A stretch of 43,958 nucleotides of DNA from Syntrophales bacterium (lineage in GTDB: Bacteria; Desulfobacterota; Syntrophia; Syntrophales; UBA2185), in the NCBI GenBank assembly GCA_035625045.1, contig DASPQI010000462.1:1-43958 (forward strand). Direction: 5' to 3'. Both the position numbers and the translations under genes were made by a program. Numbering within the stretch: position 1 is the first letter of the stretch; every line of letters begins with the position of its first letter. Below, piece after piece: positions 11,889-32,310 of the stretch. The notes under the pieces were generated by a model, which made no database searches, was not told the origin of the DNA, and saw only the letters and a list, made by a program, of their open reading frames with translations.

Positions 11889-11991
11889 GAAAAAATTTAC
11901 GTATTTTCAATATTGCCTATTGCAAAAATTATATCACCGTGTTCTATATAATCATTACGTAATTGATTTTCCTAATGGAAGGGACGATAAC

Positions 11992-14452: not shown

Positions 14453-14744
14453 TTATCTCTCTTCTTTATTAAAACTTCAAGACCTCGAATGATTCCTTTT
14501 TGTGCCTTATCATAAATCTTGCCCAGATCCCCGGCACTCATCTTAATTTTTTCAGTATATGCCGAACCGAGAATAAATACACATTATAATGTGCTTCTTA
14601 TTAATATATTCGACAAATTTAGTTAAAGCTTTAACCAAAACTTTCAATTAATGCCGTATTTTAAAATTCTTTTATCCAGGGTTACAAGTGCATTCTTTTT
14701 GCATAGGCTTCAAGGAAGCTATGACATTACATTGCCAAATTGTA

Positions 14745-14773
14745 TTGACATGCAGGACAGCCTTCCATATAAT
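14745..14773 (+). promoter_or_regulatory. Consensus sigma70 promoter
   Basis: TTGACA (14745-14750), exactly 17 nt, then TATAAT (14768-14773). It lies inside the track's N-terminal extension of the KS ORF, which supports the ATG at 14807. Confidence 0.7.
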
Positions 14774-14806
14774 TTCCGCACCTTAGAGGAAGTGCTCATC
14801 AAAGAC

Positions 14807-16054
14807 ATGCACAAGGAACGGGTCGTCATTACCGGACTGGGAACGATTAATGCGCTGGCGAAAAATACAGTTGACTTTGCTCATGCCCTGCAAGAGGGCA
14901 TTTGCGGCATCGGGCCCGTGACCCTGTTCGACACTGCAGATTATCGAACACATTGCGGGGCGGAGATCAAAGATTTCGCACCACAAGATATGATTCCACC
15001 CCGGTTTTCCTTGAAGCGGATGTCCAGAGCCGATTTAATGGCCTTTGCGGCGACCATCGAAGCGCTGACCGATGCGCGTCTCTTTCCGCTTCCCGATGCC
15101 CTCTGTGAAGATACAGGCGTAGTACTCGGCGCAGGTTCCGGGGGCAAACTGGAGGGAGAAGATTTTTACCTCAACTACCTCCGGCGGCATGGACGACATG
15201 CACGGTTTTCCAGGCTTGCCAGTGTCTGCCCCGCGGCCTCAGCAGATCACATCACTGAACATCTTGGCCTAAGGGGACCGAAGACCACCTTCATGACGGC
15301 CTGTTCGTCCGGGGCTACGGCCGTCGGATTTGCCCGCGATCTGATCGAAAGGCAAGCAGCTACTGTCATGATTGCAGGCGGCGTAGAGCCGCTTTGCAGA
15401 ACCACTTATGCCTCATTTAACGCCCTCCAGGCGGTTGATCCCGAATACTGCAAGCCTTTTGACAGAAACCGACAGGGTCTTTCCCTGGGCGAGGCCTCAG
15501 CGATCATTATCCTGGAATCATTGACTCATGCGAAAAAGAGAGGAGCAATAATCTATGGCGAAGTGCTGGGATACGGTATTACCTGCGATGCCTATCACAT
15601 GACAGCCCCGGATGTTAACGCCTCCGGCGCCGTTCGGTGCATGGAGGCGGCGTTGACGGACGCGGGCATTTCCGCTAACGCCGTCGATTATATCAACGCC
15701 CATGGGACCGGCACACCCGCCAACGATTCCATGGAAACCAAGGCACTGAAACAGGTCTTCGGAAAGGATGCCTACAGCATACCGATCAGTTCGACCAAAT
15801 CCATGACAGGGCATACACTGGGAGCGTCCGGCTCACTGGAGGCAATTGCATCCCTACTTGCAATAAGTAAAGGTTTCATCCCTCCCACTATTAATCATCG
15901 CGAGCCTGACCCGGAATGCGACCTCGATTATGTAACCACGGGCACCCGGCCGGTATCACCTGATATAGTTCTCTCCAATTCCTTCGCTTTCGGCGGAAAT
16001 AATACGACATTGATCCTGGGACGATATACAGAAAAGGGAATAATACATGAATAG
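14807..16054 (+). CDS. Beta-ketoacyl synthase (KAS II/FabF-like, catalytic triad intact)
   Basis: MHKERVVITGLG. Cys in TFMTACSSGATAVG, His in INAHGTGTPAND, His in SSTKSMTGHTLGASG, C-terminal SNSFAFGGNNTTL. Confidence 0.85.
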   Translation: MHKERVVITGLGTINALAKNTVDFAHALQEGICGIGPVTLFDTADYRTHCGAEIKDFAPQDMIPPRFSLKRMSRADLMAFAATIEALTDARLFPLPDALCEDTGVVLGAGSGGKLEGEDFYLNYLRRHGRHARFSRLASVCPAASADHITEHLGLRGPKTTFMTACSSGATAVGFARDLIERQAATVMIAGGVEPLCRTTYASFNALQAVDPEYCKPFDRNRQGLSLGEASAIIILESLTHAKKRGAIIYGEVLGYGITCDAYHMTAPDVNASGAVRCMEAALTDAGISANAVDYINAHGTGTPANDSMETKALKQVFGKDAYSIPISSTKSMTGHTLGASGSLEAIASLLAISKGFIPPTINHREPDPECDLDYVTTGTRPVSPDIVLSNSFAFGGNNTTLILGRYTEKGIIHE

Positions 16055-17276
16055 GCGTGTCGCTGTCACTGGGATTGGAGTGGTAACACCACTTGGAGTG
16101 GGGAAAGAATCCTTTGCACAGGCCATTTTCCGGGGTGACTCCGGCATTGCAGAGATCGCCGCTTTCGATACATCCCGCTTTGCCTCCCATCTGGGGGCGG
16201 AGATCAGAGATTTTTCGGCGCGTGATTTCATCTCTCTGAAGAATTTACGCAGGATGGACCGGTTGTCACAGATGGCTGTCGCATCGGCGCGGATGGCACT
16301 GAATGACGCAGGAATCTCCGTTAATACTGCGAACCGGGATCGCATCGGTACCATCCTGGGGACAGCCTTCGGACCGACGGATGTCAAGGTTCATTGTCTA
16401 AACATCCTCTTTACCGAAGGACCGGGTATGATCAATCCGATCCTGGTCCCTAATTCCATCATGAATGCACCGGCCAGCCATGCTGCTATCGAACTGGGGT
16501 TCAAAGGCGTGAATACCACGGTCAATCATCAGGCCGCTTCCGGAGAGACAGCGATTTTGTACGCGGCCATGGAGATTGAGCGGGGCGCCGCAGATATAGT
16601 CCTAGCGGGAGGGGCCGATATTCTCTCGGAGTTCTTCTTTGAAACGCTGGTCAGGTTCAGGGCGGTTTCCCCGGTTGACGGTAAAAAAGAATCCTCTCGT
16701 CCTTTTGACATCGGGCGGAACGGTCCTGTTGTCGGAGAAGGATGCGGGATCGTCTGCCTGGAGCTCCTGGAGCTTGCGGAAGAAAGAGGCAGAAAACCCT
16801 ATTGTGAGATCACAGGATGGGGAATGTCTTCTTCGCCTGCCAGCCCAACTGACTGGCCCAATGATGCGACAGGGATGAGTCTTGCCATGACCCGCGCGTT
16901 AAAATCTGCCAATCTGACGCCAGGTTACGTTGACATGATCCAGGCAGTAGGAAACGGCGGAAAAAATCCCGACGGCATCGAAGCCGATGCTTATCTTCAC
17001 CTTTTTGGATCTGAAAACAAAACACCCGCCGTGTCTTCAGTCAAAGGCGCCCTCGGCGAAAGTTTTTCTTCAGGAGGTATCCGGGCGGCCGCTCTGGCAT
17101 TATCAATAAGTAAGGGGATAGTCCCACCTACTCTGGGGCTTAAAAATCCCATCGCGCCTCTTTCTTTTGTAACCGGTAAGGCCAGGAATATGGACATCCG
17201 CAATGGTCTTGTCAATGCCGTCTCATATGGAGGAACGAACGTGTCAATAATCATGCGCAAGATCACGGCTTCGTAA
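16047..17276 (+). CDS. Ketosynthase-like protein lacking the Cys-His-His triad (chain-length-factor-like partner)
   Basis: KS fold motifs are present (VAVTGIGVVTPLG, AGGADI, NAVSYGGTNVSII). The catalytic positions read VNHQAASGE (Cys to Ala), MIQAVGNGG (His to Val) and SSVKGALGESFSSGG (His to Glu). The start overlaps the upstream KS stop by 8 nt. Confidence 0.8.
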   Translation: MNRRVAVTGIGVVTPLGVGKESFAQAIFRGDSGIAEIAAFDTSRFASHLGAEIRDFSARDFISLKNLRRMDRLSQMAVASARMALNDAGISVNTANRDRIGTILGTAFGPTDVKVHCLNILFTEGPGMINPILVPNSIMNAPASHAAIELGFKGVNTTVNHQAASGETAILYAAMEIERGAADIVLAGGADILSEFFFETLVRFRAVSPVDGKKESSRPFDIGRNGPVVGEGCGIVCLELLELAEERGRKPYCEITGWGMSSSPASPTDWPNDATGMSLAMTRALKSANLTPGYVDMIQAVGNGGKNPDGIEADAYLHLFGSENKTPAVSSVKGALGESFSSGGIRAAALALSISKGIVPPTLGLKNPIAPLSFVTGKARNMDIRNGLVNAVSYGGTNVSIIMRKITAS

Positions 17277-17312
17277 ATAACGTCTTCTAAAATAAATCTT
17301 GCAGGAGGTTAT

Positions 17313-18839
17313 ATGAATATCGGTGAGTGGATTTCCAAACGAGCGCTCCTCCACCCGGAAAAGCTTTTTTTAAAGGAAGAGGACGGCCGGGAATTCAATA
17401 ATGAAGAGTTTGACAGGCGCGTAAATCGCATGGCCCATGCCCTCAGTGAGTTGGGAATTGTCAAAGGTGAGCGGGTGGCAGTCCTGATGCTCAATTCCAG
17501 CGAGTTCCTGGAGATATTTTTTGCCTGCGGTAAAACAGGCGCGATCATGGTTCCCGTCAACTTCCGTCTCGCCGTACCGGAGCTGCTCTACATCCTCGGC
17601 GACTGCAACCCGCGGGTGCTGATCTATTCAACGGATTTTGCCGATAAGATCCGTGTGATTAAGGCTGCAGGTCTTCGCATCTCCCGTTATTTCCGGCACA
17701 GCGGAAATAACCTTCCCGATGATCCTTTAATAACAGATTTCGTCTCAAATTTTCCCGTAACCGAACCGGTGCCTGCGAGGGAGGTCACTCTGGATGATCC
17801 GCTTTTCATCATGTATACCTCAGGTACAACCGGCGACCCCAAAGGCGCCATGCTGTCGCACGGGAATATCCTGTTCGGAGCTATCCATTCCCTCATAGGA
17901 TACGGCGTTGATAAGACATACAAGTCGCTCGTTGTTGCGCCGCTGTTCCACATCGGGGCGCTGGCTGCCTCGGCAACGCCTGTAATATACGCCGGCGGTT
18001 CCCTTATTTTAAGGAGCTTTTACAATGCATCGGAGGCTATCAAATTAATCGTTCAGGAAAAAATCAACTATATGTTCACCGTACCGGTCATGTTCCAATT
18101 GATGACAAAATCTGAAGAATGGGATAATGCCGATTTCTCGCATGTTCATTTTTTCATATCCGGCGGCGCCCCTATCCCGATTCCGGTCATTCGCAAGTAT
18201 CAGGAGGATAAGGCTGTCGGTTTCGTACAGGGATATGGATTGACAGAGACGGGACGCCTGACCTCGCTTGATCTGGAGGATTCCATGCGGAAAGCGGGCT
18301 CCGTTGGCAAGGAGGTCTTTCACATTCAGCTGCGCATCGTCGATCAGCATGACATGGATGTTACTGCCGGAGAAGTAGGTGAAATCGTCGTCCGGGGTCC
18401 CAATGTTTTTATCTGCTATTGGAACAAACCACAGGAGACGGCAGAGGCTATGCGGGGCGGCTGGTTCCATACCGGTGATATGGGCAGGCGTGATGAAGAA
18501 GGCTTTATCTACGTTATCGGCAGAAAGCAGGAACTGATCATCAGTTCAGGAGAAAACATTTATCCGGCCGAGGTTGAAAGGGCTATTCAGACGCTCCCCC
18601 AGGTCAGGGAAGCCGCTGCCGTGGCCATGCCTGATCCCGCCCGGGGAGAGGTTGTGGCTGCCTTTGTTATACTGCATGAAGCACAGTTCTTAACGGAAGA
18701 GGAGCTGATCAATGCCCTTCAGGGACAGATTGCCAGTTTCAAGATACCGAAGAGGGTCTTTTTTGTGAATGACTTCCCCCGCAATACCACAGGCAAGATT
18801 CTGGTAAAGGAGTTAAAAAAACAACTGGCAAAAGGGTAA
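17313..18839 (+). CDS. AMP-dependent synthetase/ligase (acyl-CoA or acyl-ACP synthetase family)
   Basis: MYTSGTTGDPKGAM, QGYGLTET, WFHTGDMGRRDEEGFIYVIGRKQELIISSGENIYPAEVE, and a terminal GKILVKEL lysine. AGGAGG RBS. Confidence 0.9.
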   Translation: MNIGEWISKRALLHPEKLFLKEEDGREFNNEEFDRRVNRMAHALSELGIVKGERVAVLMLNSSEFLEIFFACGKTGAIMVPVNFRLAVPELLYILGDCNPRVLIYSTDFADKIRVIKAAGLRISRYFRHSGNNLPDDPLITDFVSNFPVTEPVPAREVTLDDPLFIMYTSGTTGDPKGAMLSHGNILFGAIHSLIGYGVDKTYKSLVVAPLFHIGALAASATPVIYAGGSLILRSFYNASEAIKLIVQEKINYMFTVPVMFQLMTKSEEWDNADFSHVHFFISGGAPIPIPVIRKYQEDKAVGFVQGYGLTETGRLTSLDLEDSMRKAGSVGKEVFHIQLRIVDQHDMDVTAGEVGEIVVRGPNVFICYWNKPQETAEAMRGGWFHTGDMGRRDEEGFIYVIGRKQELIISSGENIYPAEVERAIQTLPQVREAAAVAMPDPARGEVVAAFVILHEAQFLTEEELINALQGQIASFKIPKRVFFVNDFPRNTTGKILVKELKKQLAKG

Positions 18840-19922: not shown

Positions 19923-21650
19923 TTGAAAGAAGAATCCAAGAGCGATGAAGCCGGAAATTTGAGGAAAGAGAATTCACCCCGAATTCTTGTCGTCGATGAT
20001 GCTCCGGAGATGCTGACATTTTTAACGGATATTCTGACCAGTCACAACTATCAGGTAAGCCCCTTCTCCAATGGTCATGCAGCACTGAAATCGGCGACAG
20101 TCGACGTGCCGGACCTGATCCTGCTGGATATAATAATGCCGGATATGGACGGCTTTGAGGTTTGTCATCATCTGAAATCCGACGAACGAAGCCGTATGAT
20201 CCCGGTGATCTTCATCAGCGGTCTTGAAGAGGTCTTCGATAAAGTCAAAGGTTTTGAAGCAGGGGGAGTTGACTACATCACTAAACCTTTTCAGCTAGCA
20301 GAGGTTTTAGCCCGGGTTGAAACGCATTTGGCTATACGTCGCTTGCAAAAACAACTGGAAGGACAAAACATTCGACTCCAGGAGGAAATCACCGAGCGTG
20401 AGCGGGTCGAAGATGATTTAAGAAAATACAAAGCCCACCTGGAAGAGATCGTTGCCCAGCGCACCGCGGAACTTCAACATGTAAACAAAGATCTTCAACA
20501 GGAAATCATTGAACGAGGAAAACTGGAAGAAGCATTGCAGCATGCTAATTACAAGCTTCATGCCATGGTTTATGAATACGGTCTGCGCAATCAAAGGATG
20601 TCTTTCTTTAATCAAATGTCAGAAAAACTTCAGGCCTGCATCTCGCTTGAAGAAACATATCCTGTCATCAGCCAGTTCATTCAGAAATTATTTCTCTCTG
20701 CGACAGGAGCCTTGTATATGTTAAACTCCTCCAGTAATGAACTCGAAGCCACCACATACTGGGGAAAATCGCTTTCAGGTGAAAAAAAGTTTTCCCTGGA
20801 AGATTGCCGGGCTCTGCGGGAAAGAAAGATGCATATTACGATTGATTCTAGACCGGATACATGCTGTCGGCATCTATCCGATGTCCAAGGAAGAAGCAGT
20901 ATCTGTGTCCCCCTGTTATCTCAAGGTGAAACTATGGGAATGCTGCATATACAGCAGCGTACTTCTCATGGATCAAAATCCGCCAAAACGGTATTTGATG
21001 AATCCTCTGAAGGAATAAATGAGGAAATGCAGCAATTAGCTATCACTGTGGCCGACTATCTTGCCCTGTCGCTGGCAAACATAAAACTGAGAGATAAACT
21101 GAAACAACAGGCCATCCGTGATCCTCTTACTGGTCTTTTTAATCGCCGTTACATGGAGGAAACCCTTAGTCGTGAGATAAGGCGAGCTGAGCGTTACAGA
21201 ACCCCCCTCGGAATTATTATGGTTGATCTTGATCACTTCCGACGATTCAACAATACTTTTGGGCATGACGCGGGGGATGTGGTGCTGCAAGACATGGGGA
21301 AATTCCTGCAAAATAATGTTCGTATGGAAGATGTGGCTTGCCGGTATGGTGGGGAAGAGTTTACCCTGATAATGCCTGGGGCATCTCTGGATGTCACTGA
21401 GAAGCGAGCCGAGACATTACGACAAAAAGTTCAGGATTTAAAAATTTACTATAACAATAAATTGCTTGATAGTATCACGCTTTCTCTGGGAGTAGCTGTC
21501 TTTCCCGAGCATGGTTCAACTGGGGAGGAAGTTATTCAGGCGGCTGATGTCGCCCTATACAGGGCAAAGCATGAGGGACGTAATCGGGTAGCGGTAGCAA
21601 ACAATGGAAAGCACGCACCTACCATGCAGATTCCCACGTCCAAAACTTAA
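19923..21650 (+). CDS. Response regulator - coiled coil - GAF - GGDEF diguanylate cyclase
   Basis: Receiver ILVVDDAPEM...LILLDIIMPDMDGF...KP, a long coiled coil, then a GGDEF domain with RDPLTGLFNRR, an intact GGEEF and the RxxD I-site (RMED) 5 residues upstream. TTG start. Confidence 0.85.
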   Translation: MKEESKSDEAGNLRKENSPRILVVDDAPEMLTFLTDILTSHNYQVSPFSNGHAALKSATVDVPDLILLDIIMPDMDGFEVCHHLKSDERSRMIPVIFISGLEEVFDKVKGFEAGGVDYITKPFQLAEVLARVETHLAIRRLQKQLEGQNIRLQEEITERERVEDDLRKYKAHLEEIVAQRTAELQHVNKDLQQEIIERGKLEEALQHANYKLHAMVYEYGLRNQRMSFFNQMSEKLQACISLEETYPVISQFIQKLFLSATGALYMLNSSSNELEATTYWGKSLSGEKKFSLEDCRALRERKMHITIDSRPDTCCRHLSDVQGRSSICVPLLSQGETMGMLHIQQRTSHGSKSAKTVFDESSEGINEEMQQLAITVADYLALSLANIKLRDKLKQQAIRDPLTGLFNRRYMEETLSREIRRAERYRTPLGIIMVDLDHFRRFNNTFGHDAGDVVLQDMGKFLQNNVRMEDVACRYGGEEFTLIMPGASLDVTEKRAETLRQKVQDLKIYYNNKLLDSITLSLGVAVFPEHGSTGEEVIQAADVALYRAKHEGRNRVAVANNGKHAPTMQIPTSKT

Positions 21651-21682: not shown

Positions 21683-21712
21683 TTGACACACAGGATTATC
21701 TTACCTTATACT
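21683..21712 (+). promoter_or_regulatory. Candidate sigma70 promoter
   Basis: TTGACA (21683-21688), 18 nt, then TATACT (21707-21712). It lies 225 nt upstream of the XRE-cupin gene. Confidence 0.4.
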
Positions 21713-21938: not shown

Positions 21939-22541
21939 ATGACACAAAATGAAGATAAGAACACAGCAATTGAAGGATTAAGAATCGGAAGAACTGTAAA
22001 AGAATTCCGTCATAAAAAGCACATCACCCTTCAGGACCTGGCAGCCAGAACCGGTATCCCCAAGTCCGTTTTAGCCGAGATTGAAAATGGCGATGTGGTA
22101 CCCCCTGTAGCCACACTCCTTAAACTGGCGAAGGCATTCAATGTGGGCATGGCCTCTTTCTTTGAGGAGGAAGCGCCCGGCATGAAAATATCCGTCACCC
22201 GGAGCGGAGAAAGAATCAGAATTAAGCGGCGGCCGCATCACCATGAAGGAGAAGTAGATTACATCTATGAATCTCTTGAGACGCATAAAGCCGACAAACA
22301 CATGGAACCGCTCCTGGTCGAATTTCAGCCTTTAGACACGGGTGACATGGTTTTTACAAATCATGAAGGGGAAGAATTCATCTTTGTCCTTGAAGGAAGA
22401 CTTGAATTCCGCACCGACGACCGCATGGAAATACTCGAATCTGGTGACACACTTTACTTTGAATCGGACATAAATCACGCTTTTCGATCTCTGGACGAAA
22501 AACCTGCAAGAGCAATTGCGGTAGTCTGGAACAAGGTATAA
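21939..22541 (+). CDS. XRE-family HTH plus cupin-domain transcriptional regulator
   Basis: HTH ITLQDLAARTGIPKSVLAEIENGD and a C-terminal cupin (HEGEEFIFVLEGRLEF...GDTLYFESDINHAF). Confidence 0.85.
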   Translation: MTQNEDKNTAIEGLRIGRTVKEFRHKKHITLQDLAARTGIPKSVLAEIENGDVVPPVATLLKLAKAFNVGMASFFEEEAPGMKISVTRSGERIRIKRRPHHHEGEVDYIYESLETHKADKHMEPLLVEFQPLDTGDMVFTNHEGEEFIFVLEGRLEFRTDDRMEILESGDTLYFESDINHAFRSLDEKPARAIAVVWNKV

Positions 22542-22560
22542 AAAGGGCGGGCGGTTGATC

Positions 22561-23139
22561 ATGCTAGAAATTCGCTTTCATGGGCGTGGTGGTCAGGGGA
22601 CAGTGGTGGCGACAATCCTGCTTGCCAAGGCATTTTTTCGGGCCGGGTACCAGGTTCAAAGCTTTCCTTTCTTCGGTGTCGAGAGACGCGGGGCCCCTGT
22701 AGAAGCCTACGTCCGTCTCAACAAAGAAAGGATTCTCCTCAGGACAAATGTATATTATCCGGATCATGTTGTGGTCCAGGACCAGACCCTTCTTCATGGT
22801 ATCAATGTCACAAGGGGACTCAAGCCCGGCGGCTGGATTCTGATTAACAGCTCTGCCGCCCCTGCCGACAGAACACCTTTTATCGGCTACCGGCTGGCCT
22901 TCGTGGATGCGAACCGGATTGCCTTAAGACACCAACTGGGGACGCGGACACACCCCATTGTCAATACGGCCATGATAGGGGCTTTGGCTCGCGTGATAGA
23001 CATGCCTCCGCTGGATGCCATTCGCGAGGTTATCCGGGAAGAGGTCCCCGACACCTCAGAGATAAATATATCGGCTGCGGAAGATGCTTACAGAGAGGTG
23101 CAACTTCCGGGACTAATCGAGCCGGTTGTAAAGGAATGA
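22561..23139 (+). CDS. 2-oxoacid:ferredoxin oxidoreductase, gamma subunit
   Basis: MLEIRFHGRGGQGTVVA...FPFFGVERRGAPV. The ATG at 22561 fits the family N-terminus better than the TTG at 22555. Confidence 0.85.
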   Translation: MLEIRFHGRGGQGTVVATILLAKAFFRAGYQVQSFPFFGVERRGAPVEAYVRLNKERILLRTNVYYPDHVVVQDQTLLHGINVTRGLKPGGWILINSSAAPADRTPFIGYRLAFVDANRIALRHQLGTRTHPIVNTAMIGALARVIDMPPLDAIREVIREEVPDTSEINISAAEDAYREVQLPGLIEPVVKE

Positions 23140-23142
23140 ATT

Positions 23143-24891
23143 ATGATTGAGGCGGAGAACACGATTCCTCTATTGGTACCTTGCTCCTCCATGTCCACGG
23201 AAAGCAACAAGACCGGTTCATGGCGTTTTCTCCGGCCCCTGTATGATGAAAAGACATCCCCGTGCAGTGCGGCCTGCCCGGCAGGTGAAGACATCGCCAG
23301 GATCGAGATGCTGATTGCCCAGGGAATGTTCAAGGAGGCGTGGGAAACAATTCTCAGGGAAAATCCTTTTCCGGCCGTATGCGGGCGGATTTGCCCGCAC
23401 CCTTGCGAGGGGCTGTGCAATCGCAGAGAGTTTGACGAAGCCATAGCCATCCATACGATTGAGCGGTTTCTTGCAGAAACGGCAAGCCGTTATGAACTGA
23501 AACCTTCCCTGCCGCGGCTTGTTGCCAAAAAAGAAAAGATAGCAGTGGTGGGAGCAGGACCGGCGGGTATTGCCGCCGCTTATTTTCTTCTCCAGTTGGG
23601 ATATTACTGTGATGTTTTCGAAGCCATGCCGGAGGCGGGCGGACTTATGCGCTGGGGAATTCCACTTTACCGTCTTCCCCTTCCCGCCCTGAGAAATGAA
23701 ATCGCCCAGATCGAATCTCAGGGTGTCCGCATTCACACAGGACAACGAATTGACAAAAAATTCCTGCAGGATGCCAGAAGCCGGTACAATGCCGTCTTCA
23801 TCGGCTGTGGACACCCCCGAACTGCACAGATCGGTATTCCAGGCGAGGGGATAAGCGCCGTAGAAAATGGACTGGAATTCCTGGAGCGGATTCGACGCGG
23901 CGAATCGATTTCACTAAGTGGTCTGTCGGCCGTCATCGGTGGGGGGAATACGGCAATCGACGTGGCGAGGAGTATCGTCCGCCTTGGCGGCAAGGCCTTG
24001 ATTTTGTATAGGCGCCGGCGCCGTGATATGCCCGCCTTTGAGGAAGAAGTTCAGATGGCTCTTGAAGAGGGTGTGGGACTCAGAGAGGTTGTTGCTCCGG
24101 TAAAGATCATAGAGGATGGCGGGCAATGTATTTTGACATTACAGGAGATGAAAATCTCCGGTGAAGACAGCCGCGGCAAGGCGAATATCCTTCCGGATGA
24201 AGGAAAAACCAGTGAACTTCGTGTCCAGCATGTTTACAAGGCAACCGGTGCTGAACCTGCCGAAGACTGGCTTAATCCGACTGAAAAACCGGGGACATCC
24301 CTGGCGCTGACGAATGCCCTCCTTGTCCGTCCCGATAAGGGGCCAGTCCTGGTTTTCGGGGGGGATATGATAAATGAGACAAAGAGCGTCGCGCATGCAG
24401 TGGCTTCCGGGAAACAGGCAGCAATGGCACTGGATGTTTTCTTTCAAGACGGTATCGAGGCTGTTGTGCCGAAACTGCGGGCATGCCTGGTGGGACAGGG
24501 GCCGTCACTTTCCATGGAAGTGTACATGGGAGGAGACCGCCGCTCAAGAAATCCTCACATTGTCTGCTATGAGGAAATCAATACAGATCATTTCCAGTTC
24601 CAGCCGAGGATTACGCAGCCGCGCCTCCTGAGAGAAGAGCGTCTCAGATCCTTTGAGGAGATCGACCTTAAAATTTCCGCCAATCTGGCCATCCGTGAAG
24701 CCGATCGCTGCTTCAACTGCGGGATTTGCAACCGGTGCGACAACTGCTACATGTTTTGCCCGGATATTGCGGTGATCCGTGAAAAGGACGGTCAGGAAAG
24801 GTGCATCGATTATGACTACTGCAAGGGGTGCGGGCTCTGCGTTGTTGAATGCCCGCGCAACGCTATGACCCTTAAGGAGGAAGAGCTATGA
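23143..24891 (+). CDS. Fusion protein: GltD/NfnB/SudA-like FAD- and NAD(P)H-binding oxidoreductase plus C-terminal 2x[4Fe-4S] delta subunit of 2-oxoacid:ferredoxin oxidoreductase
   Basis: N-terminal Cys cluster CSAACPAGEDI...NPFPAVCGRICPHPCEGLCNR. Dinucleotide folds KIAVVGAGPAGIAAAYFL and AVIGGGNTAIDVAR. C-terminus CFNCGICNRCDNCYMFCPD...YCKGCGLCVVECPRNAM. It occupies the delta slot between the gamma and alpha genes. Confidence 0.8.
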   Translation: MIEAENTIPLLVPCSSMSTESNKTGSWRFLRPLYDEKTSPCSAACPAGEDIARIEMLIAQGMFKEAWETILRENPFPAVCGRICPHPCEGLCNRREFDEAIAIHTIERFLAETASRYELKPSLPRLVAKKEKIAVVGAGPAGIAAAYFLLQLGYYCDVFEAMPEAGGLMRWGIPLYRLPLPALRNEIAQIESQGVRIHTGQRIDKKFLQDARSRYNAVFIGCGHPRTAQIGIPGEGISAVENGLEFLERIRRGESISLSGLSAVIGGGNTAIDVARSIVRLGGKALILYRRRRRDMPAFEEEVQMALEEGVGLREVVAPVKIIEDGGQCILTLQEMKISGEDSRGKANILPDEGKTSELRVQHVYKATGAEPAEDWLNPTEKPGTSLALTNALLVRPDKGPVLVFGGDMINETKSVAHAVASGKQAAMALDVFFQDGIEAVVPKLRACLVGQGPSLSMEVYMGGDRRSRNPHIVCYEEINTDHFQFQPRITQPRLLREERLRSFEEIDLKISANLAIREADRCFNCGICNRCDNCYMFCPDIAVIREKDGQERCIDYDYCKGCGLCVVECPRNAMTLKEEEL

Positions 24892-26036
24892 AACGGGTCA
24901 TTGAAGGAAGCCATGCCGTTGCCGAAGCGGTCCGTCTGGCAGGGGTTCAGGTGATTTCCGCATATCCCATCACACCCCAGACCCATATCGTGGAAATTCT
25001 CTCCGAATACTGTGCCAGCGGAACCATGAACGCCCGTTTCCTTCGTGTTGAGAGCGAACATTCTGCCCTGGCCGCGCTGATCGGGGCGCAGAGCTGCGGG
25101 GTGCGGACATTTACCGCCACCGCATCACAGGGCCTTGCCCTAATGCATGAACTCCTGCACTGGACCTCTGGTGCGCGACTGCCGATCGTCATGGCCGAAG
25201 TGAACCGTGCGCTTGCGCCCGGATGGAACATCTGGACCGATCAGACCGACAGCCTTGCCCAGCGCGACACCGGCTGGATACAGATGTATTGTGAAGACGG
25301 CCAGGAGGTTTTGGATTCAATGCTCCAGGCGTATCGTCTCGCGGAGCGTGTATACCTGCCCGTGATGGTGGTACTCGATGCCTTCTACCTTTCCCACACC
25401 TATGAGTCCGTCGATGTACCTACCCAGGAAGAGGTTGACCGTTTTCTTCCCCGGTATCAGCCGCGATTCCAGCTGGATACGGAAAACCCCTGCGCCTTCG
25501 GCCAGCTTGTACCGCCCGGCGCCTATATGAAAATGCGTTACGACATCGCCGGGGCCATGGAGGAGTCTCAGAATTTCCTTGACGGGATTCAGGAGGAATT
25601 TTACGGGATCTTCCAGCGCCGCTACGATCCCGTGGAGGCCATTTGCTGCGAAGATGCAGAAATCATCTTTATAACCTCCGGCACGGTCACCAGTACGTGC
25701 CGTCTTGTGATTCAAAATCTACGGGCTAAGGGAGAGAAGGTCGGCATCCTTAAGATGAAGTTATTCCGCCCTTTCCCTGTAGCTATGGTTCGTGAGGCCT
25801 CATCACGCGCAAAAAAAATAGCCGTCATCGACCGGAACTTTTCTTTCGGAGCGAGCGGCATCTTTGCCCAGGAGGTGCGTGCCGCGTTATGCAATGTTCC
25901 CGAACATCCCCCCGTGTTCGGCTACATAGCCGGGATCGGCGGCCTCGATGTTACGGTGGAGCTGCTGGAGGAAATATACTGGAAAACCAAAAATACCGCA
26001 TTCCCTGAGAAGGAAAGCGTATGGATGGGAATTTAG
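24888..26036 (+). CDS. 2-oxoacid:ferredoxin oxidoreductase, alpha subunit
   Basis: EGSHAVAEAVRLAGVQVISAYPITPQT...ESEHSA. ATGA overlap with the upstream gene. Confidence 0.9.
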   Translation: MKRVIEGSHAVAEAVRLAGVQVISAYPITPQTHIVEILSEYCASGTMNARFLRVESEHSALAALIGAQSCGVRTFTATASQGLALMHELLHWTSGARLPIVMAEVNRALAPGWNIWTDQTDSLAQRDTGWIQMYCEDGQEVLDSMLQAYRLAERVYLPVMVVLDAFYLSHTYESVDVPTQEEVDRFLPRYQPRFQLDTENPCAFGQLVPPGAYMKMRYDIAGAMEESQNFLDGIQEEFYGIFQRRYDPVEAICCEDAEIIFITSGTVTSTCRLVIQNLRAKGEKVGILKMKLFRPFPVAMVREASSRAKKIAVIDRNFSFGASGIFAQEVRAALCNVPEHPPVFGYIAGIGGLDVTVELLEEIYWKTKNTAFPEKESVWMGI

Positions 26037-26045
26037 GTGTTATTA

Positions 26046-26075
26046 CGACCACCCCAACCCCCGCCAGCGGGGGAC
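26046..26075. repeat. GC-rich palindromic repeat (family 1 core), copy A, inside the alpha-beta intercistronic gap
   Basis: GACCACCCCAACCCCCGCCAGCGGGGGACA is almost identical to 29018-29049. It contains the CCCCCGC/GCGGGGG palindrome. Confidence 0.8.
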
Positions 26076-26186
26076 ATCAGGAATAACTCCTTTCCTTGCC
26101 GGTGGAATGGTCCTAAAAAAGTTCAAACTCCAATCCTTCTTTTGCAAAAGGGGATTTAAAGGACATAATATAGCAAGAGGTTAATC

Positions 26187-27068
26187 ATGCAATTAGATAC
26201 ACCCGATCAGGAATATATGTACTCGGGTCATGTTGGCTGTCCCGGATGCGGTGCCGCGATTGCCATGCGGTTCATGCTTAAGGCCGTGGGGGAAAAGACC
26301 ATTGTAGTGCTTCCCGCGTGCTGCTGGTCCATTATCGCCGGACCCTACCCGCAGTCAACCCTGAAGGTTCCGGTCATTCATTCCGCCTTTGAGACCGGCG
26401 GGGCGGTTGCCAGTGGCGTCCGCGCCGCCCTTGATATGAAGGGTGATACAGAAACGACTGTCGTAACCTGGGCGGGCGACGGTGGCACATTCGATATCGG
26501 CTTTCAGGCCTTAAGCGGGGCTGTGGAGCGGAATGAGGATTTTATCTATGTGTGCTATGACAACGAAGCATACATGAATACAGGCGTGCAGCGCAGCTCA
26601 TCAACCCCATATGGCGCCTGGACCACGACGACACCCGGCCAGGAATGGAAGAAGATGCGAAAAAAGAATATTGTCGAGGCCCTCGTCGCACACCGCATCC
26701 CTTATGCCGCCACAGCAAATATAGCTTACCCTGAAGATCTGGTCCGGAAAGTTCAGAAAGCGAAGGGGATGAAGGGTTCCAGATTCATCCATATCTTTGC
26801 GAGCTGTCCGACTGGCTGGCGCATCCCGTCTGAGATGTCCGTCAAGATCGCCCGTATGGCCGTGCAGACAAATATCTTCCCGCTCTATGAGGTGGAAGAT
26901 GGTTTCAAATATACCATCAATTACAAACCCAAAGAATATCTGGTGAGGGAGTATTTTAAACTTCAGGGGCGGTTCCGGCACCTTTCCGACAAGGACCTGG
27001 ATCAGATCCAGGAAATGGTCAACGAAGACTGGGAACTGCTGCTGCGCAAAGCGGGAGAACGTGCCTGA
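26187..27068 (+). CDS. 2-oxoacid:ferredoxin oxidoreductase, beta (TPP-binding) subunit
   Basis: CPGCG..., WAGDGGTFDIGFQALSGAVERNEDFIYVCYDNEAYMNTGVQ. GAGG RBS. Confidence 0.9.
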   Translation: MQLDTPDQEYMYSGHVGCPGCGAAIAMRFMLKAVGEKTIVVLPACCWSIIAGPYPQSTLKVPVIHSAFETGGAVASGVRAALDMKGDTETTVVTWAGDGGTFDIGFQALSGAVERNEDFIYVCYDNEAYMNTGVQRSSSTPYGAWTTTTPGQEWKKMRKKNIVEALVAHRIPYAATANIAYPEDLVRKVQKAKGMKGSRFIHIFASCPTGWRIPSEMSVKIARMAVQTNIFPLYEVEDGFKYTINYKPKEYLVREYFKLQGRFRHLSDKDLDQIQEMVNEDWELLLRKAGERA

Positions 27069-28182: not shown

Positions 28183-28851
28183 ATGTCTACTATGGAATTA
28201 ACGAAAGAAGGGGCTGTTTATATCCTGACCCTGATGAACGGCACCGATGCAAATACCATCACGGAAGATGTGATCGGTGAATATCACGACGTTTTGGATG
28301 AACTTGAAGCCTCTGCAGAAAACGCCGCCCTGGTCATGACAAGTAATGACCAGAAATTCTGGTGCAACGGCGTCAATTTGGATTGGATTGTCAAGCAGCC
28401 GCACGATTACTTTCCGAAATTTGTGCAGCTCCTTGATGAATTATATTTAAGATTCGCCCTGCTCCCTATGCCTGCGGTAGGTTGCCTTACGGGACATACC
28501 TATGCAGGGGGAGCCGTTCTCGCCACGACACTGGACTTCCGTATCATGAGAAAGGATAAGGGCTTCTTCTGTTTTCCCGAAGTGGACATCAAGATTCCAT
28601 TCAGCCCGGTCATGTATGAGATACTCCGGTTGCTGCCCGACCACCATGCCCTCAACGAACTACTGCTTACCGGAAGACGGATAGGCGGCACAGATGCATT
28701 GGAAATGAAGATTGTCTCGGCAGTATATCCTCAGGAAACGCTTTTTAAAAAGGCAATGGAACTGGCAATATCTCTGGCCAAGAAAGACCGCAAAACATAT
28801 GCCAATATTAAACGCGGACTGCGGCAGAATTTGGTGAGATTCACCCTTTGA
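28183..28851 (+). CDS. Enoyl-CoA hydratase/isomerase (crotonase) family protein
   Basis: Crotonase-type pattern: VYILTLMNG...NGVNLDW...VGCLTGHTYAGGAVLATTLDFRIM...FPEVDIKIPF. Confidence 0.75.
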   Translation: MSTMELTKEGAVYILTLMNGTDANTITEDVIGEYHDVLDELEASAENAALVMTSNDQKFWCNGVNLDWIVKQPHDYFPKFVQLLDELYLRFALLPMPAVGCLTGHTYAGGAVLATTLDFRIMRKDKGFFCFPEVDIKIPFSPVMYEILRLLPDHHALNELLLTGRRIGGTDALEMKIVSAVYPQETLFKKAMELAISLAKKDRKTYANIKRGLRQNLVRFTL

Positions 28852-29017: not shown

Positions 29018-29049
29018 GAACCACCCCCAACCCCCGCCAGCGGGGGACA
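29018..29049. repeat. GC-rich palindromic repeat (family 1 core), copy B
   Basis: GAACCACCCCCAACCCCCGCCAGCGGGGGACA. It is flanked by further hairpins: TCTCCCTTT-TATA-AAGGGAGA (28974-28995) and CCCCCTTT-AGA-AAAGGGGG (29059-29077). Confidence 0.8.
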
Positions 29050-29143: not shown

Positions 29144-30505
29144 TCACTCTTTGAGGCCGTACTTCTTAAGCTTATACCGCAGCATCCGTTCGCTGATGCC
29201 GAGGATTTCTGCGGCTTTCGTCTGATGATCACCCGCCTTTTCCATGGCATCGAGGATTAGTTTGCGTTCCATTTCTTCAATTGATCCCCGGAGCAATCCC
29301 TCTTTCTTACCTGCTTCTTCCGGAAAGATTCTCTCTTCCGTAAACGGAAGATCATCTACTGAAATGACCGAATTTCTCGAAATCACCACGGCCCGCTCGA
29401 TGATATTTTCCAATTCCCTGACATTACCGGGATAATCGTATTTTAAAAGCAGGTCTCTTGCCTCGCTCGTTACGCCTGTTATGTTTTTTCCGTTTTCTAC
29501 AGCAAAACGTTTAAGGAAGTGGTCGATCAGTACGGGCACGTCTTCCTTTCTCTCTCTCAGAGGGGGAATGTCCATGGCAACCACATTCAACCTGTAGAAG
29601 AGGTCTTCTCTGAAACTCCCTTCTTTGACCTTTGATTCCAGATCGCGGTTGGTCGCGCTGATGATCCGCACGTCGGAATGAATGGTCTGATTGCCGCCTA
29701 CTCGCTGAAATTCTCGTTCCTGAAGGAAACGAAGGAGCTTTACTTGCACAGGGGCCGATATATCGCCAATCTCATCCAAAAACAGGGTTCCCCCGTCGGC
29801 TTCCTCAAACCTGCCGATTCTTCTTGCCGTTGCACCGGTAAATGCCCCCCTTTCATGGCCAAATAGCTCGCTTTCGAGCAGACTCTCGGGAAGGGCGCTG
29901 CAGTTTACCGTAATAATGGGACTTGCCGAACGGGGACTGAGATTGTGTATCAATCTGGCCAGGAGTTCCTTCCCCGTACCGCTTTCACCCTTCAAAAGGA
30001 CGGTGGCGCGGCTGGCCGCGATCCTCCTCGCCATATTTATCAGGGCATTCATCTTCGGACTTCCATAAATAATCATGTCCATCGTGACGCCCTTTTCTCT
30101 CAGCTCCTGGCGAAGCATCTCATTTTCCCGGAGCAGGGTACGCCGCTCCGAAACACGATCTACGAGGATAAGAAGCTCATCAAATTCTATAGGCTTGGTA
30201 ATGTAATCTATAGCCCCCGCCTTCATGGCCTCCACCGCTGTTTCTATTGTTCCGTACGCGGTAATGATAACCACATCAATCTCCGGATTGATCTTCTTCA
30301 CCTCTTTAAGCACCTGCATGCCGTCCATGCCGGGCATCTTATAATCGAGGAGAAGCATGTCAAAATGACCTTTTAGAACAGACTTGATTGCCGCATCTCC
30401 GTTTTCAGCTTCCGTTACCGTATGGCCTTCCTTAATCAGAAAATCCCGGAGCATCTCCCGCTGTGACTTTCCATCCTCGACGACCAGAATATTTAACTTC
30501 TTCAT
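29144..30505 (-). CDS. Sigma54-dependent response regulator (NtrC/AtoC/ZraR family)
   Basis: Receiver ILVVEDG...MLLLDYKMPGMDG...KP. AAA+ domain GESGTGKE, GAFTGA, FLDEIGD. C-terminal Fis-type HTH AAEILGISERMLRYKLKKYG. Confidence 0.95.
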   Translation of the reverse strand: MKKLNILVVEDGKSQREMLRDFLIKEGHTVTEAENGDAAIKSVLKGHFDMLLLDYKMPGMDGMQVLKEVKKINPEIDVVIITAYGTIETAVEAMKAGAIDYITKPIEFDELLILVDRVSERRTLLRENEMLRQELREKGVTMDMIIYGSPKMNALINMARRIAASRATVLLKGESGTGKELLARLIHNLSPRSASPIITVNCSALPESLLESELFGHERGAFTGATARRIGRFEEADGGTLFLDEIGDISAPVQVKLLRFLQEREFQRVGGNQTIHSDVRIISATNRDLESKVKEGSFREDLFYRLNVVAMDIPPLRERKEDVPVLIDHFLKRFAVENGKNITGVTSEARDLLLKYDYPGNVRELENIIERAVVISRNSVISVDDLPFTEERIFPEEAGKKEGLLRGSIEEMERKLILDAMEKAGDHQTKAAEILGISERMLRYKLKKYGLKE

Positions 30506-32310
30506 GCCCGAGCACCTTCAGTTTTTCCGTTTTTGTCGCCAGCCCTTTCTCTCGGCAGCAATATCTCAAAGGTCGTACCCGAACCTGGTCGGCTTGCGAC
30601 ACGGATTTCACCGCCATGGCCGCGGATAATCTCGTGAGCAAGGGGAAGCCCCAAGCCCAGGCCTTTTTCCTTTGTTGTATATTCGGGATTGAAGATCCGC
30701 TCCACTTCTTCAACTGACATGCCGCACCCGTTGTCCGATATTTTTATACTGACCCGGTCCTTCCCGCCCGAATCCACGGAGATAATGACAGAGCCTTCTC
30801 CGGATATAGATTCCATGGCATTCTTCACAAAATTGATAATAGCCTGCTCGAGTTTATCCACATCCATGGGAATAATCGCCGGAGTACCGTTGTATCTGGT
30901 TTCCACCTTAATTCCTTTCGAGGCGGCCTCTTCACGAATCAGATTGACAATTTTTTGCAGTAGCTCGGAAACTGGGTAGTCATGGAGCTCCAGACGGCGA
31001 CTTTTAGAAAATGTTAGAAACTCTTCAATGATTCCATCCAGACGTCTGATTTCATCGCGAATAACACCGGCAAGAGTTTTAAACTCTCTTATCTTGTCCT
31101 CATCCGCCGGCATGAATTCCCGTTTGAGTCTCTGGCTGGCCATACTAATAGCGTTAAGGGGATTGCGAATTTCATGAGCCACACCCGCGGCAAGATGGCC
31201 GAGGGCAGACAACCTTTCGGCCTTTTCGAGCTGTCTTTCCATTTCTACAATCCCTGCCAGATGCCTGTTTTGATTATGGTAGAGTGTCCACATCGACAAT
31301 AGGGTGATCAGGATGATAGAACTCATGAAAAGGATAATGTTGCGTTTATTTTCTTCAATGATCTCATCCGTACCTTCCCGATCAAGGCCGAGCCTAGCAA
31401 CTCCCGCTACCTTGCCGAACAAGTATATGGGCGCTGCTATATCCAGAACCTTTTTATTGTTGGAAACGATCTTTCTGCTTTCAAATTTTTTCGTGCCTGC
31501 CAGAATTTCAGCGGTTTGTGCATTACTCCTTTCCCACTTTTCAGGAAGCTGACCCGCGCTGCCCAGGAGCATGTTCCGCTGGTCTGTGATCGTAATATAA
31601 ACCAGACCCTGCCCTTGTCCATGACCCAGTCCTTCCAGGGCTTTTTCTACAGACACCTTCACGCCCCAATACCTCTGGCCGTCCCGATCAAGGGCAATGA
31701 TGACCGTACCGCTTCCATCTTTACGGCGAAGTGCAACAAACCCGATCTTTTTAAGGCTGCCGAGCTTTGCGAAAAGATCCACGTTGATATCTTCTTTCCT
31801 TATCACCGCGGAAGGGCTCCCACCGACTAGATCTGCCGACAGCGACCTGCTTTGGTACACGGCCTTTCCCTGTCTATTAAGAACGGCGACATACCATAAA
31901 CTTTTTTCTTCGGCACATTTGACCAAATATTCTTCATTCAGATGGCCGGCCTTCCATTCTTTATCGATAGTCCGCGCCAATTCCACAAGGGCGGTTGTCA
32001 ATGACTTTTGCGGTAATAGTGCCTCATCAACGAGAGGAACCGTCGTACTTCCGCTGTCCCTCTTGTATGCCTGGATCATGGCATTCAGGTTTTCCTGGGA
32101 CAACCTCTCGACAACACCTATTATACGGAGACCCTGGTTCTCCATGAAACCCATAAGTATCCTGTCACTTCGCCTGAGATCCATAATCCCCATTGTAAGG
32201 ATGAGCCCAATGAAAACGGCACAGACAATGGCCACGGCGATAGGCTGTAAGAAACGCCGGTCATACTTGGGAGAGAGGTGCTGCCAGATAACTTTGTTTT
32301 GCGGTGTCAT
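30502..32310 (-). CDS. Sensor histidine kinase (two TM segments flanking a ~290-aa extracytoplasmic domain; HisKA/HATPase)
   Basis: H-box LAAGVAHEIRNPLNAI, N-box NFVKNAMES, G-boxes SDNGCGM and GLGLGLPLA. 4-nt overlap with the regulator gene. Confidence 0.9.
   Translation of the reverse strand: MTPQNKVIWQHLSPKYDRRFLQPIAVAIVCAVFIGLILTMGIMDLRRSDRILMGFMENQGLRIIGVVERLSQENLNAMIQAYKRDSGSTTVPLVDEALLPQKSLTTALVELARTIDKEWKAGHLNEEYLVKCAEEKSLWYVAVLNRQGKAVYQSRSLSADLVGGSPSAVIRKEDINVDLFAKLGSLKKIGFVALRRKDGSGTVIIALDRDGQRYWGVKVSVEKALEGLGHGQGQGLVYITITDQRNMLLGSAGQLPEKWERSNAQTAEILAGTKKFESRKIVSNNKKVLDIAAPIYLFGKVAGVARLGLDREGTDEIIEENKRNIILFMSSIILITLLSMWTLYHNQNRHLAGIVEMERQLEKAERLSALGHLAAGVAHEIRNPLNAISMASQRLKREFMPADEDKIREFKTLAGVIRDEIRRLDGIIEEFLTFSKSRRLELHDYPVSELLQKIVNLIREEAASKGIKVETRYNGTPAIIPMDVDKLEQAIINFVKNAMESISGEGSVIISVDSGGKDRVSIKISDNGCGMSVEEVERIFNPEYTTKEKGLGLGLPLAHEIIRGHGGEIRVASRPGSGTTFEILLPRERAGDKNGKTEGARA

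Follow-up and report, generated by a model that had tools for sequence, protein, structure and literature searches.

On a 43,958-nucleotide contig of a Syntrophales bacterium (DASPQI010000462.1 of assembly GCA_035625045.1, analyzed over its whole length and called the window below), we describe an operon for a 2-oxoacid oxidoreductase (OFOR) with an unusual delta subunit. This subunit, here called X (23143..24891, forward strand; 582 amino acids plus stop), was identified from Pfam and NCBIfam models and from its homologs as an OFOR delta subunit with an inserted DsrL-like module for NADP(H), flavin adenine dinucleotide (FAD) and [4Fe-4S] clusters. According to textbooks, OFORs connect 2-oxoacids with acyl-CoAs in anaerobes and depend on ferredoxin. 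We propose, with a probability of about 0.62, that the operon encodes a POR/VOR-type four-subunit OFOR whose DsrL-like delta makes it a CoA-acylating 2-oxoacid:NADP+ oxidoreductase. A preliminary description of this DNA had claimed that the delta subunit wires the thiamine pyrophosphate (TPP) and Fe-S chain of the OFOR to a pyridine-nucleotide/FAD module, and this holds up: PorD is replaced, cluster ligands and nucleotide motifs are conserved, and an uninterrupted run of cysteines joins the two parts of X.

In X, Pfam recognizes Fer4_20 (residues 37–116), Pyr_redox_2 (132–381) and a C-terminal 4Fe-4S dicluster domain (528–576). NCBIfam assigns the protein to GltD/NfnB-type families, and its C-terminus passes the PorD_KorD model TIGR02179 (67.7 bits, cutoff 60.05). 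The preliminary description had read this as a GltD/NfnB-type flavoprotein of about 480 residues followed by a 2x[4Fe-4S] delta domain. The domains were recovered as described, and so were POR, POR_N and TPP_enzyme_C in the neighboring genes, but the simple order was not: an N-terminal fusion of flavoprotein before delta domain was rejected in favor of insertion and permutation, as the N-terminal arm of PorD is still present at residues 8–36. This arm (23164..23250, forward strand; IPLLVPCSSMSTESNKTGSWRFLRPLY) contains the motif NKTGSWRFLRP and aligns with residues 2–28 of M. acetivorans PorD (9bt4_G); N22, T24, G25 and W27 are invariant. It also matches PorD_Arch, which the N-terminus of DsrL does not.

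The remaining parts of X follow on the same strand. The Fer4_20-type cluster region (residues 37–116, 23251..23490; PF14691, 68.5 bits) contains C41, C45, C84, C88, C92 and E107 and precedes the FAD and NADP(H) Rossmann folds (residues 132–436, 23536..24450), which are recognized by Pyr_redox_2 and Pyr_redox and by alignments to NfnB, NfnL, StnC and GltD. A linker of variable length (residues 437–485, 24451..24597), delimited from the family alignment and the AlphaFold2 model, is predicted to be structured (pLDDT ~91–97) and is shortened or absent in locus L042 and in DsrL-type relatives. Residues 486–526 (24598..24720) correspond by profile and by an un-permuted construct to the N-terminal segment of the NfnB/GltD fold, displaced to this position and ending with EAxRC523xxC526. 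Finally, residues 527–582 (24721..24888) form the 2x[4Fe-4S] domain of PorD (C529x2C532x2C535x3C539P and C560x2C563x2C566x3C570P; PorD_KorD, 59.5 bits). A chimera of X residues 1–46 and 520–582 aligns end to end with M. acetivorans PorD (residues 2–83 of 85 in 9bt4_G) and scores 59.5 bits against it, compared with 49.8 bits for the C-terminus of X alone. X thus reads as a PorD whose arm and dicluster domain flank an inserted NfnB/GltD-type flavoprotein of ~490 amino acids.

The inserted flavoprotein is itself circularly permuted relative to NfnB and GltD. The canonical chain of NfnB, GltD and dihydropyrimidine dehydrogenase (DPD) starts with a helix followed by EAxRCxxC....CxxxCP. In X, only the second half of this motif (C41xxxC45P) lies near the N-terminus, while the first half is found at residues 486–526 (…AIREADRC523FNC526), and positions 5–55 of TIGR01318 match residues 486–540. 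For a permutation test, residues 480–526 were placed before residues 37–440 and the construct was re-aligned to canonical relatives. Scores rose from 221 to 250 bits for T. maritima NfnB, from 188 to 218 bits for P. furiosus NfnL, from 145 to 165 bits for GltD and from 114 to 133 bits for DPD, with the start of the alignment moving from residue 44 to 13, 79 to 7, 56 to 23 and 85 to 59, respectively. The permuted order of X is shared by NfnA (9n5u), C. saccharolyticus NfnA (9bov) and StnC (8oh5). StnC and NfnA are also the best structural matches of the AlphaFold2 model of X (mean pLDDT 89.6, pTM 0.89), with 612–621 aligned columns and TMq of 0.71–0.75, compared with ~440 columns for NfnL, GltD and DPD.

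The permutation brings C523xxC526 to within two residues of C529xxC532xxC535xxxC539P, resulting in an uninterrupted six-cysteine run. This run is invariant in all sequences of three sets (27/27, 64/64 and 234/234). All cysteines of the PorD domain are also invariant, and C41, C45, C84, C88, C92 and E107 are invariant in the sets of 27 and 64. Using the cluster-ligand list of T. maritima NfnB (PMC7596348), a distal flavoprotein cluster would be held by C523, C526, C41 and C92 (NfnB C39, C42, C47 and C100) and a proximal one by C45, C84, C88 and E107 (NfnB C51, C90, C96 and E117). The proximal set also aligns with the residues that hold cluster A7 in the structure of C. saccharolyticus NfnA (C108, C147, C151, K170). 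The two PorD-type clusters of X are probably bound by C529/C532/C535/C570 and C539/C560/C563/C566. Together with the cluster of the beta subunit, a protomer should contain five [4Fe-4S] clusters, one FAD and one TPP. Since only two residues separate the ligands of the distal cluster from those of the first PorD cluster, the flavoprotein and PorD halves are probably electronically connected; this spacing appears to be the strongest argument for such a connection at the level of sequence.

X was confirmed as a single gene. The ORF 23143–24891 is intact, the best 120 homologs are all ~580 amino acids long with the same domains, and a second search seeded with a 39%-identical relative returned another 120. 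Consequently, a frameshift or an assembly artifact joining two genes, which the preliminary description had named as the finding that would overturn its reading, was rejected: homologs of the same length occur in hundreds of independent assemblies, and the gene was found in 32 independent loci. The public gene call for the same protein (P0001) starts at Met17 (23191 rather than 23143), is 566 amino acids long and loses part of the PorD arm. The 582-residue start appears better supported, because residues 8–16 are conserved and align with PorD residues 2–10 and because the ribosome-binding site fits.

Likewise, the gene order gamma/X/alpha/beta of the porGDAB type and an XRE-cupin regulator directly upstream, both noted before, were corroborated by model matches for each gene. 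All of these genes lie on the forward strand. The regulator (21939..22541, 200 amino acids) has a helix-turn-helix domain (HTH_3, residues 20–72) and a Cupin_2 domain (residues 139–195), and is weakly similar to PuuR; a cupin regulator points to a small molecule as inducer of the operon. It is followed by OFOR gamma (22555..23139, 194 amino acids; PF01558 POR, 130.7 bits; TIGR02175 PorC_KorC, 189.3 bits, cutoff 81.1), X, OFOR alpha (24888..26036, 382 amino acids; POR_N 233 bits, PFOR_II 99 bits) and OFOR beta (26187..27068, 293 amino acids), which carries TPP and the proximal [4Fe-4S] cluster (TPP_enzyme_C; NF008818, 420.9 bits, cutoff 405). The ATG of X is located 3 nt past the stop codon of gamma, with an AAGGA ribosome-binding site 9 nt before it, and X and alpha overlap by ATGA, with AAGGAGG ahead of the alpha start. 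X is translationally coupled to both gamma and alpha.

We compared 32 loci of independent assemblies. In every one, X is next to alpha and beta within the module regulator-gamma-X-alpha-beta; gamma is kept in 31 and the regulator is directly upstream in 28, while a MarR gene takes its place in locus L057. None of the 32 modules contains a separate delta (porD) gene. When all ORFs of these loci were clustered, no conserved NfnA-like, ferredoxin, acyl-CoA synthetase or aminotransferase partner was found; the other “conserved” clusters proved to be antisense shadow ORFs or lineage-local synteny. X probably replaces PorD as the delta subunit, because it occupies the delta slot, is translationally coupled to its neighbors, has no separate porD beside it and shows PorD features at both ends. 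At 582 residues it is far outside the usual size of a delta subunit (a stand-alone, ferredoxin-like protein of ~85–130 amino acids). M. acetivorans PorD (9bt4_G) shares its operon place, N-terminal arm and 2x[4Fe-4S] domain but is only ~85 amino acids long, and the insert of X would add two clusters, FAD and an NADP(H) site.

In X, G137xG139xxG142 corresponds to the FAD motif, and G266GGN…Y289RR291…MPA to the NADP(H) motif, with Y289 and R291 invariant in the set of 64 sequences. In NfnB, the YRR motif holds the 2′-phosphate, and DsrL-2, which has the same motif, is strictly NADP(H)-dependent (PMC7596348). Because of this motif, the cofactor of X is predicted to be NADP(H) and not NAD(H). Members of a subclade including L036 and L037 may differ in their preference for NADP(H) or NAD(H).

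The closest family to X is DsrL, a characterized NAD(P)H:acceptor oxidoreductase which gives electrons to or takes them from DsrAB and contacts this Fe-S partner enzyme via its C-terminal ferredoxin domain (PMC7596348). Both proteins have a cluster region, an FAD fold with an embedded NAD(P) fold, a linker and a C-terminal 2x[4Fe-4S] domain, in the same permuted order and with the six-cysteine run RCxxCGxCxxCDNCxxFC; DsrL-2 also shares YRR. Full-length relatives without OFOR neighbors (L044–L048, L054) are 33–36% identical to X. The one in L054, a metagenome-assembled genome (MAG) of Gaiellales, is a DsrL (5950–7650), as its gene comes after dsrA (550 bits) and dsrB (490 bits), with dsrE next in line. 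On the DsrL model NF009410/PRK12771 (cutoff 516 bits), this protein scores 639.9 bits, whereas X remains below the cutoff with 470.1. Conversely, the C-terminal domain of DsrL reaches 23.0 bits on PorD_KorD, compared with 59.5 for the equivalent part of X, and DsrL lacks the TGSWR arm. Furthermore, DsrL is partnered with DsrAB and X with an OFOR. By the definition of DsrL, which asks for dsrAB and for no immediate POR/VOR linkage, X falls outside, being located between OFOR gamma and alpha; the authors of this definition set POR/VOR-linked homologs aside from DsrL (Loeffler et al., 2020; PMC7596348). The two families are probably sisters, with PorD-specific features setting X apart.

The likeness to DsrL also raises the question whether X is a DsrL-like oxidoreductase that merely neighbors the OFOR and serves another partner, or whether its flavin module is vestigial or regulatory in an enzyme that is still ferredoxin-linked. 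The 470 bits on the DsrL-type model NF009410 would fit such an explanation, and ferredoxin could still reach the PorD clusters. However, among the annotated ORFs of the window there are no dsr genes, dsrAB included, and an OFOR without a separate porD would be missing its delta subunit altogether. The PorD arm and the PorD-like C-terminus are specific to the OFOR-linked clade, the FAD, NADP(H) and cluster residues are strongly conserved down to ~35% identity, and fusions of the module to gamma and to IorA tie it to OFOR parts. We therefore consider both variants very improbable.

DsrL proteins (L054, L044–L048) also have the displaced EAxRCxxC segment and the six-cysteine run, with 10 rather than 8 conserved C-terminal cysteines. 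An N-terminal Ser/Thr and Cys/Arg have been proposed as ligands of the distal cluster in DsrL (PMC7596348). Our alignments suggest, more simply, the two conserved C-terminal cysteines of the displaced segment, so that RCxxC would supply Cys ligands where Ser, Thr or Arg had been proposed.

For the NADP+-linked enzyme, the following electron path is proposed. The 2-oxoacid and CoA would react at the TPP of the alpha/beta active site, from which electrons would pass to the [4Fe-4S] cluster of beta and to the two PorD-type clusters of X. From there, they would reach the distal and then the proximal flavoprotein cluster, FAD and finally NADP+. The retained PorD arm and the PorD-like dicluster domain would dock X at the usual PorD site, and formation of a complex between X and the other OFOR subunits is likely. 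A linear route is most likely because no NfnA-like partner is conserved. The cluster potentials of PFOR from Methanosarcina are −475, −430 and −385 mV, and A. vinosum DsrL-1A has three clusters at −330 mV and one at −390 mV. The potential of NADP+ is −320 mV. By analogy with the PFOR and DsrL values, the path from the OFOR clusters to NADP+ would be gently downhill, and from thermodynamics the net direction is probably oxidative.

Several points weigh against this proposal. We found no report in the literature of an activity for any member of the clade. Oxidation of a donor of −500 mV by NADP+ would waste ~35 kJ/mol. This would be surprising in Syntrophales, which are energy-limited, and allows for a reductive or coupled role. 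Glu107 of X is as in the bifurcating NfnB, and not the Lys of the non-bifurcating StnC and NfnA. Ferredoxin may still have access to the PorD clusters. Lastly, the triplet at residues 289–291 is YRR in 162 of 234 family members, but YHR in 50 and YQR in 9, so that in about one quarter of the family the cofactor preference may vary.

A reductive role would mean that the same NADP(H)-wired OFOR uses NADPH to drive the carboxylation of acyl-CoA to a 2-oxoacid, for instance as a pyruvate synthase, and that pyruvate or branched-chain 2-oxoacids could be made without reduced ferredoxin. OFORs are reversible, the cluster potentials of PFOR are fairly flat, and the NADPH/NADP+ couple lies below −320 mV in the living cell; in addition, reduced ferredoxin is expensive for the hosts, which are syntrophs. 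DsrL-2 enzymes with YRR are used reductively with NADPH as donor (PMC7596348). Assuming ΔE of ~180 mV, acetyl-CoA/CoA of 10, 10 mM CO2 and NADPH/NADP+ of 50, we estimate that pyruvate would reach only a few micromolar at equilibrium, which is low, but not impossible given a downstream pull. On the other hand, the reaction is uphill by 25–35 kJ/mol under standard conditions, and electrons would have to move from DsrL-type clusters at about −330 mV onto PorD clusters at about −385 to −475 mV. The known NAD(P)-linked OFORs, phenylglyoxylate:NAD+ oxidoreductase and the pyruvate:NADP+ oxidoreductase (PNO) of Euglena, are oxidative, and a cupin regulator sensing a small molecule fits a catabolic operon better. 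Taken together, reductive operation is possible but rather unlikely.

A coupled role would require a bifurcating or confurcating OFOR, in which the NfnB-like FAD couples NADP(H) to the OFOR chain and also to a partner that docks on the PorD domain from outside, such as ferredoxin. The inserted module is homologous to the bifurcating NfnB, E107 corresponds to its Glu ligand, the equivalent of NfnB R201 is kept as Arg177, and the enzyme could in principle harvest the large difference in energy between 2-oxoacid and NADP+. If so, the ~180 mV gap would be conserved, or used in reverse for carboxylation, by a new class of flavin-based enzymes. However, NfnAB needs a second exit from FAD via the [2Fe-2S] cluster and FAD of NfnA, and an NfnA/NfnS-type small-subunit gene is neither found near X in the window nor conserved in the 32 loci. 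In X, as in the non-bifurcating StnC and NfnA, a linear chain ends with FAD; the Arg is also conserved in the non-bifurcating StnC and hence not diagnostic, and the published description of DsrL is that of a simple NAD(P)H:acceptor oxidoreductase (PMC7596348). We regard bifurcation as improbable. Of the alternatives listed in the preliminary description (NAD(P)+-linked, reverse or bifurcating), the NAD(P)-linked one stands, with NADP(H) predicted from YRR, while the bifurcating or confurcating one loses ground as no second exit is conserved.

StnC and NfnA of Bfu-type NfnABC (8oh5_C, 9bov_A, 9n5u_A) are the best matches in sequence as well as in structure; they cover X almost completely, and both its linker and the displaced RCxxC segment are part of the match. 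In these proteins, the module is a linear, non-bifurcating entry point from NADPH via FAD to 2x[4Fe-4S]. They differ from X in the Lys ligand of the proximal cluster (Glu in X) and in their downstream partners, which are NuoG/Fdh-like domains and a HydBC-like bifurcating core rather than an OFOR. NfnB/NfnL, GltD and the N-terminal half of DPD have homologous FAD and NADPH folds and cluster ligands, and T. maritima NfnB shares the YRR motif and a proximal cluster of three Cys and one Glu, but X departs from their canonical N-to-C order by its permutation. Assignment of X to GltD was rejected, since it scores 208.6 bits on TIGR01318 (cutoff 483) and 140 bits on TIGR01317 (cutoff 448) and no GltB-type gene flanks it; among the annotated ORFs of the window, neither a GltB-type nor a DPD catalytic partner was found next to X.

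Functionally, an X-type OFOR would be analogous to phenylglyoxylate:NAD+ oxidoreductase and to the eukaryotic PNO. The former, PadEFGHI of Azoarcus/Aromatoleum, is a POR-family OFOR which reduces a pyridine nucleotide via an added flavoprotein component, as proposed here, and is described as NAD+-linked (Hirsch et al., 1998, cited in PMC5109826). Its extra flavoprotein is a separate fifth subunit and it uses NAD+, whereas NADP+ is predicted for X. The models of PadE, PadF, PadG and PadI match gamma, the delta part of X, alpha and beta, but all stay below their cutoffs (130/300, 31–34/150, 287/700 and 244/700 bits, respectively), and identification of the operon as PadEFGHI was therefore rejected. 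The PadH model is absent from the best 25 of 36–40 matches to X. In PNO of Euglena and Cryptosporidium, an OFOR is covalently joined to an NADPH flavoprotein and converts pyruvate, CoA and NADP+ to acetyl-CoA, CO2 and NADPH. Its flavoprotein is a cytochrome-P450-reductase-type FMN/FAD domain on a single-chain PFOR, without extra Fe-S clusters, and PNO is an independent invention relative to the X-type OFOR.

The catalytic subunits were inspected for hints of the substrate. C18, C21, C45 and C206 of beta and its motif GDGG...NEAYMNTG align with POR beta of M. acetivorans, so that the cluster ligands and the TPP motif appear to be kept. The best solved relative of alpha is POR alpha of M. acetivorans (340 bits). 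Alpha is closest to archaeal PorA but remains below the equivalog cutoffs (PorA_Arch 479 vs. 550 bits, VorA 405 vs. 646 bits), whereas beta passes NF008818, a subfamily model named for 2-ketoisovalerate oxidoreductase. As already stated in the preliminary description, the substrate cannot be assigned from sequence: the alpha and beta models point in different directions, to a pyruvate- or a branched-chain-type 2-oxoacid. The substrate motif YPITP is present in alpha as YPITPQT and conserved in X-linked alphas. In addition, these alphas conserve a pocket motif, NRALAPGWNIW (alpha residues 105–116), down to 49% identity. The Arg in NRALAPGW lines up with the RAL motif in PFOR of M. thermoacetica, and the position of its Trp112 is taken by Ile in Methanosarcina POR and by Leu in Moorella PFOR. 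NRALAPGWNIW may be a substrate-pocket signature of the clade, and its conservation suggests one common, perhaps small, substrate.

Named homologs of X come from Syntrophales/Syntrophaceae, Desulfobacterales, SAR324, KSB1, Dehalococcoidia and unclassified MAGs, and all names are generic. A search of 1.84 billion 50%-identity representatives with X resulted in 3440 matches at E ≤ 1e-30. The best 150 of these were sorted with simple patterns (the arm combined with a “CKGCG” signature), and the counts are therefore approximate. About 93 stand alone and carry the PorD-type “CKGCG” signature, 58 of them matching the arm pattern as well, and ~14 are DsrL-like. Ten are fused to gamma (POR + Fer4_20 + Pyr_redox_2; e.g., P0258, P0294, P0306) and four to an IorA-type alpha (POR_N + TPP_enzyme_C + Fer4_20 + Pyr_redox_2 + Fer4; P0335, P0346, P0377, P0388). 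Wiring of OFORs to an NAD(P)H module thus appears to be common and repeated in several architectures. In P0373, the same permuted module is fused to an HdrA-like protein. The fusions suggest that the permuted NAD(P)H/FAD module is a general plug-in adaptor for Fe-S enzymes, one adaptor being found with DsrAB, POR/VOR delta, gamma-delta fusions, IorA and NfnA/StnC.

Regarding OFOR-linked X proteins, we found no description in the literature beyond the sentence excluding them from DsrL (PMC7596348). A database model that nearly fits, a JGI annotation of both halves, this passing mention and NAD(P)-linked OFORs as such were already known. New are the anatomy of insertion and permutation, the contiguous six-cysteine junction, the putative sister relationship to DsrL and the predicted NADP(H) specificity. 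Genes for X are currently annotated as “FAD-dependent oxidoreductase”, “glutamate synthase” or plain “POR delta”, and can pass for dsrL, which matters in gene surveys of the sulfur cycle. If the proposal is correct, an NADP(H)-wired OFOR would alter the choice of electron carrier when the metabolism of Syntrophales, Desulfobacterales, SAR324, KSB1 and further uncultured anaerobes is modeled, and a ferredoxin-free, NADPH-coupled OFOR, as predicted here, would be attractive for CO2-fixing or acyl-CoA-producing pathways.

The wider context of the window gave no metabolic clue. Upstream of the regulator gene, a sigma-70-like promoter candidate was found on the forward strand (21683..21712; TTGACA-18-TATACT, 11/12 matches), which is a consensus match only, the region containing 10 such sites in total against 6.0 ± 2.6 expected. 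A response-regulator/GGDEF gene (19923–21650) lies upstream of the operon, and an enoyl-CoA hydratase gene and a sigma-54-type two-component pair downstream (28183–28851 and 29144–32310). These genes accompany the operon only in the closest Syntrophales relatives (5–7 loci, including the window) and are local synteny rather than parts of the module. Further upstream, two adjacent beta-ketoacyl synthase genes (467 and 409 amino acids) followed by an AMP-binding acyl-CoA ligase-type gene (14651–18839) could form a small fatty-acid or polyketide-type cluster, and a CdaA-type diadenylate cyclase is encoded at 11920–13434.

The gap between alpha and beta (26037–26186) measures 150 nt in the window. 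Most relatives have ~14 nt there; among the closest ones, its length varies between 100 and 270 nt and its sequence is only partly alignable. An RNA element in this gap was rejected, as the gap lacks conservation and folds no better than shuffled sequences do (z = −0.62). The gap contains a 25-nt hairpin element, CCACCCCAACCCCCGCCAGCGGGGG, which locus L002 shares together with much of the gap, while L001, L005 and L041 differ. A second copy of the element with 2 mismatches is present at 29022–29046 (0 expected by chance), and it looks like a short intergenic repeat of the REP type.

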